Assembly: GCA_030148545.1 (NCBI GenBank)
Contig: JASBTF010000003.1
Coordinates: forward strand, 250 to 64,249
Length of the DNA: 64,000 bases
Reading direction: 5' to 3'
DNA from: Pseudomonadota bacterium
GTDB taxonomy: Bacteria; Pseudomonadota; Alphaproteobacteria; UBA2136; JASBTF01
Shown: in pieces, positions 6,724 through 10,115 of the stretch
How positions within the stretch are numbered: the stretch's first letter is position 1
Layout: each line of letters opens with the position of its first letter
The notes under the pieces: model-generated
Database searches by the model: none
The model's input: the letters and a program-made list of their open reading frames with translations, nothing else
What the model was told of the DNA's origin: nothing
Translations under genes and position numbers: made by a program

Positions 6724-6753
6724 TTAAAAATCCCGCGTTTGCGGGATTTTTAA
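6724..6753. terminator. Bidirectional terminator between rpsU and the rbcS-like gene
   Basis: TTAAAAATCCCGC-GTTT-GCGGGATTTTTAA. Confidence 0.85.
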
Positions 6754-6874: not shown

Positions 6875-7189
6875 TTATGCTGCAGTTTGCGGTGCTTTAA
6901 CCACAAAGCTGGTGGCATATTGCTGATTAGCGCGGTCGAACGCACATAGGCGAATATGCGCAAAGGGGAAGCGCTTGGCACAGGTATCAATTTGGCTCAT
7001 CACCCAGTGCGTGGTTAGTTTGGCTTGGCGCGGTAGTGGCCATAATTTCCAATAAACTTCATCTGGTGCTGGGTTTTCAGCAAACTCAATTAGTGGCAAT
7101 AGGTCATGTTCCAACATATTTTCTACCTGAGACTCAATTTGCCCAGGAGAGAGTGGTGGTAGGAATGAGAAAGTTTCAAAGCGTGACAT
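6875..7189 (-). CDS. RuBisCO small-subunit (RbcS/CbbS)-like protein
   Basis: RbcS signatures FETFSFLPPLS, IEF, YWKLWPLP, FPFAHIRLCAFD and SFVV; AAGGA RBS; 22 nt downstream of the RbcL-like gene. Confidence 0.9.
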   Translation of the reverse strand: MSRFETFSFLPPLSPGQIESQVENMLEHDLLPLIEFAENPAPDEVYWKLWPLPRQAKLTTHWVMSQIDTCAKRFPFAHIRLCAFDRANQQYATSFVVKAPQTAA

Positions 7190-7211
7190 AATAATTAATC
7201 CTTATTAAACC

Positions 7212-8897
7212 TTATTTGTCGCGGTCGCCATCAATAGAGCGTAGCGTGGTTTTTGTTTTTGGCTTTTTAGCTGCTTTTTCCTGCACTACGGTGCCACTAA
7301 CGCCGTCTTTCTGGTCACCTAAAATAACACCAAACAGGAAGGATTCTTCAGCCCAGTATTCCAATGCTACCTTTAGCTCAGGCGCATATTTTTGTGCATG
7401 GGTAAGAATTTGTTTGCTTTCTACAGTTAGGTTGCGGCCTTCACCACGGGCTTGCATCACAGCTTCAATAGCGGTGCGGTTGGCAGTGGCGCCAGCAGCA
7501 CTACCCCATGGGTGGCCCATAACACTACCACCACATTGAATAATTAGGTCTGGCCCTAAAGCATCTACCAAACGTGGGAAGTGCCATGGGTTATGCCCAC
7601 CACCCACAGCGGGGAGGCTAGTTGCATGGTTAGCAAAGGACTGGGCATAGCGTAGGCCTGTTTCCATCTCTACTTCAATGTGTTGCTGCGTAAGTGCAGA
7701 GGTAACCCCACGTACAGCACGGCGGCCACTTGTGCCACCACGTAGCGGACTTGCGGTACTCACAACATCGGCACCGGCAAGGCGCAATAGTTTAGCTTGC
7801 ACTTGCTCGGTTAAAATATCGCCACTCAAGGTACGGCTACCCATGGCACAGAGAATCATATCGTTTTGGCGGCACCATGTAGCTAGCGATTGCAATGCAA
7901 TCCACCCAATTACACTGCTATCCACCAAAATCATGTTGAGACCGAGCTGTTTCACCAACTCAGCGCGTTGTAGCATGCCTTCTATTGTTGGGGCTGTTAC
8001 GTTGGCAGCATGGCATTTAAACTCGTTTGTGTCGGCTTGGGCACTGTGCACGGCATCGGCCAAGTATTGGAAACGTTCGCGCCATTGGTTGCTAGGAATA
8101 CTGTGCAGCAACGTTGGGTCGGCCGTAATATCTACACCGCCTTTTAATGTTTCAAAAGCAGCACGGCCGTACATGCGTGGGGATAGGCCCATCATAGGGC
8201 GCATGGTTACGCTGAGTAGAGGGCGGCCAAACTTGCCTGTAAAATCGCGCAGGCCATTGCTGCCAAAAGCAGGGCCTGGGAAGGTGCGCAGAAGTAAATC
8301 TGGAATACGAATATCTACCAGCTTAGCATCGGTACTGGTGGCGGCAGAGCCGAGCACGGCGAGTAAGCCAACAAGTGAACCATCTTCTACCATGCCATGT
8401 GGGAAGGCGAGGTCTACCTCTACACGGCGGTTACCTGTTTGGCGGCTATCTACCGCAATGGGGCGTGGTGTTTTGGCTTTATCTACAAATTGTTCGGTCC
8501 ATGCTTCAATCCAAGCACCGTGAGCGGCGTTTTTCAGCAGTTGCGCTGCTTCGGCAGGGCTGCGGTCGGTGTCGGGAAGTACGTAGGTGGCAAGCACATC
8601 GGTTAGGTCGCTGTTGCTTTGTGTCGCTTGGCTTTCGGTTTCCTTAGTGCTGGTGGTTACAGCAGCTGGGCCATTGGTGGTTAGGCCTGTTAGTGCATCT
8701 AGGCTGATTTCCAGTACTTGGGCAATTTTCACCATATTACTAATGGATGGGTTTACTTGCCCAGAGAGAATACGGCTGAGAGTGGCAAGGGATACGCCTG
8801 ATTTTTCAGCAAGTTCTGCTGCGGTCATGTCCTGCTGTTGCAGCGCTGTTTTAAGGGTATTGCCAAGTTGTTGGGATTCGTTAGTGGGCGTACTCAC
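7212..8897 (-). CDS. XRE-family HTH domain fused to a catalytically degenerate Form I-like RuBisCO large subunit
   Basis: N-terminal MTAAELAEKSGVSLATLSRILSGQVNPSISNMVKIAQVLEISLDAL (Cro/C1 HTH), then an S/T-rich linker, then RbcL landmarks TFPGP, KFGRPLL, LKGGVD, WRERF, NVTA, WCRQNDMIL, GHPWG.AAGATANR.A.EA, ARGEGRNL and PEL. KDDE is replaced by ADPT. Confidence 0.9.
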   Translation of the reverse strand: MSTPTNESQQLGNTLKTALQQQDMTAAELAEKSGVSLATLSRILSGQVNPSISNMVKIAQVLEISLDALTGLTTNGPAAVTTSTKETESQATQSNSDLTDVLATYVLPDTDRSPAEAAQLLKNAAHGAWIEAWTEQFVDKAKTPRPIAVDSRQTGNRRVEVDLAFPHGMVEDGSLVGLLAVLGSAATSTDAKLVDIRIPDLLLRTFPGPAFGSNGLRDFTGKFGRPLLSVTMRPMMGLSPRMYGRAAFETLKGGVDITADPTLLHSIPSNQWRERFQYLADAVHSAQADTNEFKCHAANVTAPTIEGMLQRAELVKQLGLNMILVDSSVIGWIALQSLATWCRQNDMILCAMGSRTLSGDILTEQVQAKLLRLAGADVVSTASPLRGGTSGRRAVRGVTSALTQQHIEVEMETGLRYAQSFANHATSLPAVGGGHNPWHFPRLVDALGPDLIIQCGGSVMGHPWGSAAGATANRTAIEAVMQARGEGRNLTVESKQILTHAQKYAPELKVALEYWAEESFLFGVILGDQKDGVSGTVVQEKAAKKPKTKTTLRSIDGDRDK

Positions 8898-8921
8898 GGG
8901 ATAGCTAACCTTATACTTATT

Positions 8922-8964
8922 TTTCAGATATGATATTCATAGCGAATATCTTCCATATCTGCAA
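8922..8964 (-). promoter_or_regulatory. Predicted sigma70 promoter overlapped by two inverted operator-like pseudo-palindromes
   Basis: Minus strand reads TTGCAG-N17-TATGAA. Boxes are TTTCAGATATGATA (8922-8935, +) and TTGCAGATATGGAA (8951-8964, -). Confidence 0.6.
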
Positions 8965-9089
8965 GTGATACGTAAGAAATTAATGCGCTGGTAAAATGAA
9001 TTTAATAGCATAGCTAAGGGCGGTGACACTTAAAATACCACCGCACCATAGTGCTGCAAACCACAACCATTGTTTGGTGTGCTTACTCA

Positions 9090-10115
9090 TTAATACATAC
9101 TTTCTTCGGAGCTTTTGCCACGGAAAATCCAGTAGCAGTAAGCTGTATAAGCCAGAATAATTGGCAACATAAGTAGCGCACCAACTAACAATAGTGAGAG
9201 TGACGTACTAGCGGCAGCAGCATCCCACAGGGTGTACTCAAATGGAACAATCCATGGCCACAGGCTAATGCCTAAGCCAATATAGCCAAGTAGGAAGAGT
9301 ACCATGGCAAGTATAAAGGGGCGAATTTCTATATCGCGGTTTAAATCCTTCCACAGCCAAATACACACACCAAGGGTGAGCAATGGCACAGGCAACAATA
9401 GGAAGAAGTTTGGTAGGCTGAACCATAGCTCTGCAATGCGGGTATCAATAAATGGCATGCTGAGGCTAACAACACCCATGAACACCACAACAAATAGCAA
9501 GATATAGCGCGCAGCTTGGCGTGCCCAGCTTTGGAGCTTACCGTCGGATTTCATAACAATCCACGTTGCGCCAAGTAGAGCATAACCAAAGATAACAGCA
9601 ATACCAGTAAGCAATGCAAAGCCGTTAGCCCAGTCCAGCGGGCCGCCACCGTATTCACCATTAGCAACTTCTACACCTTGTACAAAGTTACCCAAGATAA
9701 TGCCTTGCATGAGGGCCGCAAACAGGGAGCCAAAGTGGAAGGTAGCATCCCAAAATGCGCGAGATTTTGCAGTATCGGACTTGAAGCGGAATTCAAACGC
9801 TACGCCACGGCAAATAAGCCCAAGTAGCATGAGAATAACGGGTAGGTACAGTGCGGGTAGCAATATGGCATAAGCTTTGGGGAAGGCAACAAAAAGTCCG
9901 CCACCACCAAGTACAAGCCATGTTTCATTAGCATCCCAAAAGGGTGCAATGGCATTCATCATACGGGCGCGTTCTTTATGGTCTCCAGCGAAGGGGAATA
10001 GAATACCCACACCCAGGTCAAAGCCGTCGAGCCATACATACATAAATACAGCTACTGCTACTAATACGCCCCAAATTAAAGGGAGGTCTAGCCATGTTCC
10101 AAAATCAAACATCAT
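9090..10115 (-). CDS. cydB: Cytochrome bd ubiquinol oxidase subunit II (CIO-like)
   Basis: Motifs LDGFDLGVG, PFWDANETWL and RGVAFEFR. Confidence 0.96.
   Translation of the reverse strand: MMFDFGTWLDLPLIWGVLVAVAVFMYVWLDGFDLGVGILFPFAGDHKERARMMNAIAPFWDANETWLVLGGGGLFVAFPKAYAILLPALYLPVILMLLGLICRGVAFEFRFKSDTAKSRAFWDATFHFGSLFAALMQGIILGNFVQGVEVANGEYGGGPLDWANGFALLTGIAVIFGYALLGATWIVMKSDGKLQSWARQAARYILLFVVVFMGVVSLSMPFIDTRIAELWFSLPNFFLLLPVPLLTLGVCIWLWKDLNRDIEIRPFILAMVLFLLGYIGLGISLWPWIVPFEYTLWDAAAASTSLSLLLVGALLMLPIILAYTAYCYWIFRGKSSEESMY

Follow-up and report, generated by a model that had tools for sequence, protein, structure and literature searches.

We know of no job for the small subunit of RuBisCO (RbcS) besides serving the CO2-fixing L8 core of the enzyme. 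Form IV RuBisCO-like proteins (RLPs), to our knowledge, have no small subunit at all and form a clade of their own. Large subunits that assemble without RbcS have also been described as Form I', in which a Form-I-like large subunit octamer occurs without the small subunit (Banda et al. 2020, as cited in PMC9833052).

We describe a pair of genes in a 64,000-nucleotide stretch of alphaproteobacterial DNA (the window; contig JASBTF010000003.1 of assembly GCA_030148545.1). In this pair, a RuBisCO large subunit fused to a helix-turn-helix domain (HTH-RbcL, here called L) and devoid of the carboxylase residues is followed by a gene for an RbcS-like protein (here called S). The most likely reading is that L and S still form a complex and that this complex works as a gene regulator. 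The pair was followed through 29 genomes of the order, which is uncultured, the window's own genome included, and through independent metagenome loci.

Organization of the locus

Table 1. Features of the L-S locus, in order of position in the window
Feature	Position	Strand	Remarks
rbcS-like gene S	6875..7189	-	104 aa; ATG start; stop at 6875-6877; open reading frame and PF00101
L-S spacer	7190..7211	-	22 nt; AAGGA 9 nt before the S start
HTH::RbcL fusion gene L	7212..8897	-	561 aa; GTG start; open reading frame and Pfam
C-terminal extension, L residues 522-561	7215..7334	-	disordered (pLDDT <50); missing from canonical RbcL
Form-I-like RbcL body, L residues 96-521	7335..8612	-	without the carboxylase residues; PDB E 2e-91
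Disordered linker, L residues 73-95	8613..8681	-	pLDDT <50; length and sequence vary among orthologues
XRE-type HTH_3 domain, L residues 15-69	8691..8855	-	PF01381, E 5.4e-15, 55.6 bits (cut-off 23)
Operator-like site O2	8922..8935	-	1 mismatch; inverted repeat I1; 29 bp from O1, centre to centre
Operator-like site O1	8951..8964	-	exact TTNCA-N4-TGNAA

A sequence-only reading of the window had reported an RbcS homologue of 104 residues with the motifs RFETFSFLPPLS, YWKLW and AHIRLCAFD, a ribosome-binding site of its own, and the order large-then-small subunit with a gap of 22 nt. The motifs are all present exactly as given there; the order and the gap are confirmed (Table 1); and the ribosome-binding site can be identified as an AAGGA inside the spacer, 9 nt ahead of the ATG.

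The translation of the S reading frame begins with MSRFETFSFLPPLS. The protein is a member of the Pfam family RuBisCO_small (PF00101; E 7.4e-25, 87.2 bits against a cut-off of 27) and matches the profile over its full length, from position 1 to 97 of 97. In a search of the PDB, the closest solved structures are RbcS chains of the cyanobacterial type (E 5e-23 to 2e-21, about 40% identity). An AlphaFold2 model computed from 25 orthologues has a pLDDT of 83.1 and shows the RbcS fold, a four-stranded sheet with two helices, which can be superposed on solved RbcS; Foldseek comparison with RbcS chains gives TM values of 0.75-0.82 and a probability of 1.00.

Conservation in S is concentrated near its N-terminus: when 25 sequences are aligned, 14 positions never vary, nine of which fall within residues 3-21, the N-terminal arm. 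In the canonical enzyme, the N-terminal arm of the small subunit provides most of the binding energy between the large and small subunits, according to PMC9833052. The arm residues that have stayed fixed after the loss of catalysis are therefore the residues that bind the large subunit in the canonical enzyme. Elsewhere in S, the loop between strands betaA and betaB carries a conserved insert of about nine residues in two of the S-bearing lineages, f2 and f5. The Ala-Ala at the C-terminus, which had been proposed as a ClpXP degron, is found in just one of 25 S orthologues, that of the window genome itself, and this speaks against the proposal.

Between S (minus strand) and a convergent rpsU-like gene (plus strand), at 6730-6747, there is a G+C-rich hairpin with A-runs and T-runs on its flanks. 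It could terminate both genes; it is absent from the terminator-scan listing.

In L, the RuBisCO_large domain of Pfam covers residues 216-515 (E 6e-63). The structure model is confident for the HTH (residues 5-70, pLDDT about 90) and for the RbcL body, with the barrel above pLDDT 90, and the 40-residue tail is disordered. The RbcL body matches Form I large subunit chains with Foldseek TMt values of 0.84-0.91. The stretch of the HTH that contains the recognition helix is almost invariant (in A1). Besides the window's own genome, the order comprises 28 genomes, and these yield 25 near-full-length orthologues of L.

The L proteins of S-bearing genomes have in common a C-terminal extension, disordered and roughly 40 residues long, in which most lineages show a TPFR-like motif followed by an acidic terminus. 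The extension of the window's L is divergent, and the proteins of f3, a family without S, have none.

Loss of the carboxylase active site

Four bona fide Form I sequences (P0091-P0094, which score 739-791 bits on the NCBIfam model NF003252) were aligned with 27 members of the family, and the catalytic positions were read from this alignment. The positions are numbered according to the usual scheme for the enzyme, mapped through sequence motifs of the bona fide Form I sequences.

The residue set of a Form I carboxylase (K201, D203, E204, K175, H294, H327 and K334) is replaced in 27 of 27 family sequences. K175 has become R and H327 has become S in every member; K201 is A, C or V in all 27; D203 is P in 26 and A in one; E204 is T, V or A; H294 is M, L or T; and K334 is G or E. 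At position 177 the lysine has given way to M, L or S, and E60 and N123 are lost as well. R295, G380 and G381 are kept in 27/27 sequences, and G403/G404 mostly. The residues that took their place hardly vary within the family, so the pocket has been altered and yet is conserved.

The L of the window had been described as catalytically dead from its sequence, and this description holds: K175, K177, K201, D203, E204, H294, H327 and K334 are all missing from it. Its score on NF003252 is 319.5 bits, under the cut-off of 438, and it reaches 97-124 bits on the MtnW models (cut-offs 409-514) and 73 on OiaX (cut-off 700) among the NCBIfam models for RLP enzymes. Judged from its residues, L cannot be a carboxylase.

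Search for another partner and for a Calvin cycle

The window's own genome (1.14 Mb in three contigs, 85.8% complete) contains exactly one match to PF00016 and one to PF00101. Phosphoribulokinase (PRK, PF00485) was not found in this 85.8%-complete genome, and searches of it for CbbX and RbcX returned none. Among the 29 genomes of the order, PF00485 is above its cut-off in one, marginally so (23.3 against 22 bits). PF00016 occurs in 26 of the 29, each time as the long, HTH-fused frame, and a second, intact rbcL was found in none of them. The sequence-only reading had raised the alternative of a separate active rbcL elsewhere that S would serve; no such gene was found in the own genome or in the 29-genome order. 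Together with the linkage and selection described below, these searches support the view that S works for no other rbcL and is no relic.

One genome of the order (G013) has a second HTH-RbcL copy, on a 2.7-kb contig (locus L015, G013:C148). In the tree this copy nearly equals the copy of G014 in branch length and sits far from the main copy of G013; a mis-binned contig is a likelier explanation than a paralogue.

Linkage of L and S and selection on the pair

Both genes are present in 24 of the 29 genomes, and PF00101 in 25. The exceptions are two genomes with L only (G002 and G015), two with only a remnant of L (G007 and G011), and one with S only (G028), which is 54% complete and has S on a contig of 5 kb. 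Wherever the two genes share a contig, S comes after L on the same strand (23/23 pairs). The spacers measure -14 to +29 nt in 16 pairs, 226 nt in one, 405-555 nt in five and 2442 nt in one. Because L and S are separated by other genes or by 226-2442 nt in seven of these 23 loci, tight translational coupling is not universal.

The genes found between L and S in six loci are unrelated and differ between lineages (L017:6803-7219, L019:6570-7052, L011:3190-3604, L012:991-1398, L016:2168-2725 and L034:5525-7969). By eye, they resemble a VOC/glyoxalase protein, a CMP/dCMP-type deaminase, a NUDIX hydrolase (in two genomes) and one or more membrane proteins; in one locus there is a 2.4-kb block. Insertions seem to be tolerated between L and S.

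An independent sample was obtained by fetching nine metagenome loci, two of which were dropped as the same DNA as loci already counted; S follows L in 7/7 of the remainder. The possibility that homologous HTH-RbcL loci usually lack rbcS, which had been put forward as evidence to look for against a conserved pair, is contradicted by co-occurrence in 24/29 genomes, always in the same direction. A wide protein search returns about 90 relatives at E <=1e-122, nearly all of them with PF01381 and PF00016. These relatives all come from MAGs, mostly labelled Alphaproteobacteria, and in a 50%-identity library the HTH-RbcL family collapses to about five clusters. No conserved flanking genes were found beyond the L-S pair; the neighbours differ between families, the cydAB genes upstream of L in the window included.

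Selection on the two genes was estimated by the Nei-Gojobori method from pairs of genomes with unsaturated dS (0.6-1.2); the other pairs were saturated or gave dN/dS of 0.09-0.45. In the unsaturated pairs, the dN/dS values for S and L, respectively, are 0.055 and 0.02 in G001/G010, 0.054 and 0.054 in G008/G012, 0.15 and 0.16 in G006/G020, and 0.15 and 0.15 in G017/G024. Both L and S are under purifying selection, and the values in the four pairs indicate that S is constrained about as strongly as L.

Phylogeny and the family that lost S

In a quick tree of 38 rows, from which two partial sequences were left out, all HTH-RbcL sequences form a single clade (SH-aLRT 100), whose stem measures 1.95 changes per site. 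When Form III-like sequences serve as outgroups, the clade falls with Form I (SH-aLRT 99); its stem is too long for a placement relative to IA, IB, IC and ID. The PDB rankings favour green-type relatives for both L and S.

PF00101 is absent from all four genomes of family f3 (completeness 85-97%). This family is nested within the tree as sister to f4 (support 88), so its loss of S is secondary; its branch length in the same tree is 1.11. Two f3 species have full-length L proteins, which lack the C-terminal tail. S-bearing members have 131 positions with at least 95% conservation; the two full-length f3 proteins have changed 28 of them, including 19 at which the conserved residue is also the Form I consensus. 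The change can also be followed in L residues 461-490, which form the most Form-I-like stretch of S-bearing members (0.70-0.73 identity, against 0.38-0.50 in f3). This stretch is the helix-8 region and lies beside the position of the interface pair TeRbcL P415A / TeRbcS V98M listed in Table 2 of PMC9833052.

The two other f3 species have a shorter gene in the syntenic position (L031:5078-5638 and L032:5186-5812, both on the minus strand), with frames of 187-209 aa. These mini-genes keep the N-domain of RbcL and a short C-terminal piece, 'W..SF.F.VI.GG', and the HTH and the barrel are deleted. Given the changes in the full-length proteins and the truncations in the others, the loss of S was accompanied by remodelling of L and then by its decay. 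The two species with a full-length HTH-RbcL and no S also indicate that L can evolve independence from S. The mini-proteins of L031 and L032 resemble each other and may still be in use.

Prediction of an L-S complex

For prediction of the complex, residues 97-530 of L were combined with S, using an alignment of 25 rows for each. The ipSAE between L and S was 0.53 in three runs, as against 0.00 in all three controls, a result graded as weak support, in which the solved L-S complexes may be remembered. The partner had a pLDDT of 80 or more, and the runs had at least 77% of their contacts in common. For orientation, the ipSAE mark is reached by 58 of 80 solved complexes and by 2 of 110 mismatches, and scores of 0.60 or less belong to 7 of the 80 and to both of the mismatches. 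Because L-S complexes have been solved many times, the L-S pair may pass through likeness rather than through binding.

An operator-like palindrome upstream of L

A 14-bp palindrome, TTSCA-N4-TGSAA, recurs upstream of L in the orthologues. In the window, both O1 and O2 (Table 1) lie within the 82 nt (8898-8979) between a cydX-like mini-ORF and the start of L. When the 300 nt before the L start are scanned for TTNCA-N4-TGNAA, 13 of 24 regions contain an exact match and 20 of 24 a match with at most one mismatch; 200 mononucleotide shuffles give means of 0.2 (maximum 2) and 3.4 (maximum 10), respectively. There is circularity in this count, since the 24 sequences, from related genomes, are also those on which the motif was first picked out by eye. 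The palindrome often occurs twice per locus, 17-29 bp apart. In the independent sample, an exact palindrome is found no more than 100 nt from the match start in 3/3 metagenome loci with upstream DNA. From its sequence and position, the palindrome suggests self-regulation by HTH-RbcL.

Across the own genome, TT[CGT]CA-N4-TG[CGA]AA shows no enrichment, with 23 occurrences observed and 26.4 expected (first-order Markov, analytic), and we therefore claim no regulon beyond self-regulation. Scanning the same genome with a PWM gives 28 matches of at least 13 bits, four of them intergenic; the promoter of L itself and one other intergenic pair stand out.

The other pair lies outside the window, at C3:120811 and C3:120925 of the own genome (G000), with 19.4 and 16.0 bits, and is a possible second target. 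It is located between a gene for a hypothetical membrane protein and an NAD-dependent sugar epimerase-like gene. A UDP-glucose dehydrogenase-like gene is nearby, and two weaker sites fall inside the epimerase gene.

A consensus scan of the minus strand at 8898-8979 found no sigma-70-like promoter. The arrangement TTGCAG-17-TATGAA can be picked out upstream of L by eye; it is weak and we do not claim it as a promoter. The mini-ORF upstream (8980-9090, minus strand) has 36 codons, too few for the open reading frame list, and starts at the cydB stop, the two overlapping in TAATG. Its product, one hydrophobic helix, is probably a small subunit of cytochrome bd of the CydX-like kind. In several f2 genomes (G010, G023, G024, G017, G021 and G019), tRNA-like DNA can be seen by eye just upstream of the L promoter.

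Interpretation and alternatives

On balance, L is probably a RuBisCO large subunit that has lost catalysis and turned into an XRE-type, self-regulating transcription regulator, with S as its still functional assembly partner. A single transcript probably serves for the translation of both genes, and the N-terminal arm of S would, by homology, dock into the groove between L2 dimers. There it would help the HTH-RbcL body to fold, to stay soluble and to oligomerise into a Form-I-like particle, (L2)nS2n, that is at most L8S8. The L2 dimer would provide two-fold symmetry, with two N-terminal HTHs on flexible tethers of about 25 residues; paired in this way, the HTHs would bind TTSCA-N4-TGSAA upstream of L, so that the pair would regulate at least itself. 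If S bridges L2 dimers, one particle could carry as many as four HTH pairs. The former active-site pocket, which is strongly conserved, retains R295 and the phosphate-binding elements G380/G381 and G403/G404 and has Arg in place of K175; it may bind an anionic metabolite that tunes DNA binding. We infer the physical binding of S to L, the stoichiometry, repression, ligand, allostery and multivalent DNA binding in this scheme, and likewise the display of eight HTHs and the DNA looping or bridging proposed in the sequence-only reading.

A further reading, possible and in our view rather doubtful, is that the hexadecamer has been rebuilt as a multivalent transcription factor, in which the pocket senses a phosphorylated metabolite and the canonical closure moves the HTH tethers. 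Eight S would then hold four HTH-bearing L2 dimers, and several operators could be read cooperatively or by looping. The closure would consist of movement of the N-terminus, loop-6 and C-tail, as in canonical substrate binding, around a pocket that appears to be rich in arginine.

The main rival to the assembly-partner reading is entrenchment alone: a large subunit derived from Form I may be unable to fold, stay soluble or remain stable without S, while its oligomeric state and the number of HTHs are not under selection. In PMC11696622, the dependence of Rubisco on its small subunit is described as layered (stability, solubility, catalysis), and the layering makes the dependence persist. In the present family catalysis is gone and S persists, and the loss of S in f3 came with many changes in L and the long branch, as if compensation were costly. 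The tandem operators in many loci, at the spacing given above, fit cooperative binding by several HTHs instead, which is a hint and not a proof. Entrenchment is fully compatible with the data; it overlaps with the assembly-partner reading and differs from it only on why S has been kept. It would explain the retention of S without any selected role for valency, and the sequence-only reading had not considered it. As the sole reason, we think it unlikely. It is less probable again, and clearly so, that the pair is still an enzyme with a new, RLP-like chemistry, the HTH coupling the level of the enzyme to its own promoter (a 'trigger enzyme'). The near-invariance of the pocket replacements (R at 175, P at 203, S at 327 and the GGGHNPWHFPRL stretch) and a barrel modelled at pLDDT >90 would suit an enzyme. 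However, known RuBisCO and RLP chemistries depend on the Lys201/Mg2+ metal site, and the carbamylated Lys201 is absent from 27/27 sequences along with both Mg2+ ligands, D203 and E204, and with K175, H294 and K334; the scores on the RLP models, MtnW and OiaX, are also far under the cut-offs.

We see very little chance that S has a role of its own, as a co-regulator, an anti-repressor or an adaptor to another protein, rather than a structural one in an L-S particle. Such independence could be read from the separate ribosome-binding site, from the seven of 23 loci in which S is 226-2442 nt away from L, and from the conserved betaA-betaB insert of about nine residues in f2 and f5. On the other hand, S is never found apart from L, save on the one 5-kb contig of a 54%-complete genome, its invariant residues are those of the canonical L-binding arm, and L changes and decays once S is lost; as for the anti-repressor suggested in the sequence-only reading, nothing in the analysis points to such a role. 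Finally, the pair might be what is left of a CBB operon, decaying and no longer of any use, as small genomes (0.9-1.9 Mb) without PRK and the gene remnants in two f3 species might be taken to mean. This is scarcely credible in view of frames that have stayed intact at 43-59% protein identity (L in 25 further genomes, S in 24), dN/dS of 0.02-0.2 and a conserved operator-like site.

Implications

The retention of S throughout the order after the loss of catalysis separates structural reasons for keeping a small subunit (stability, solubility, assembly) from catalytic ones. The order thus contains a natural test of 'layered entrenchment', which has so far been studied with reconstructed ancestors (PMC11696622), and also a built-in control, f3, which lost S and then remodelled or lost L. 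If the assembly-partner reading is right, L would be the first RuBisCO to serve as the body of a transcription factor. The locus also carries a warning for annotation: calls of 'RuBisCO large and small subunit' in such genomes do not equal autotrophy.

In the literature searched, neither an HTH-RbcL fusion nor an S paired with a dead L was found, though supplementary 'RLP' lists might hold such proteins. Term searches of a 2026 preprint on Form-I-related RuBisCOs and of PMC12663927 likewise turned up no HTH-RbcL fusion and no S with a dead L.

Comparison with known systems

Form IV RLPs resemble L in having a RuBisCO fold without RuBP carboxylation. L differs from them in keeping S, in carrying an HTH and in grouping with Form I (support 99, in a tree without a named Form IV sequence); unlike in Form IV RLPs, the Lys201/Asp203/Glu204 metal site is also lost. 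Form I' is a possible parallel for the S-less f3 proteins. It is, however, an active carboxylase thought never to have had S, whereas here S is retained and catalysis is lost.

XRE one-component regulators with a C-terminal sensor or oligomerisation domain share with L the N-terminal HTH_3, a palindrome at their own promoter and a dimeric body. In L, unlike in these regulators, an entire RuBisCO large subunit makes up the body, and a gene of its own encodes the small subunit.

The closest system for S is the Form I RbcS/CbbS of the green type, represented by Synechococcus PCC 6301 (1rbl, 1rsc) and by a reconstructed ancestor (7qsw), which belongs to the same Pfam family and has the same length and fold. 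Like Form I RbcS, S has an N-terminal ETF.(F/Y)LPPL arm and the motifs YW..W and C..R.P, and its gene comes directly after that of the large subunit. Unlike Form I RbcS, S is encoded in a genome with no PRK, CbbX, RbcX or second rbcL, where its only possible partner is the carboxylase-dead, HTH-fused L.
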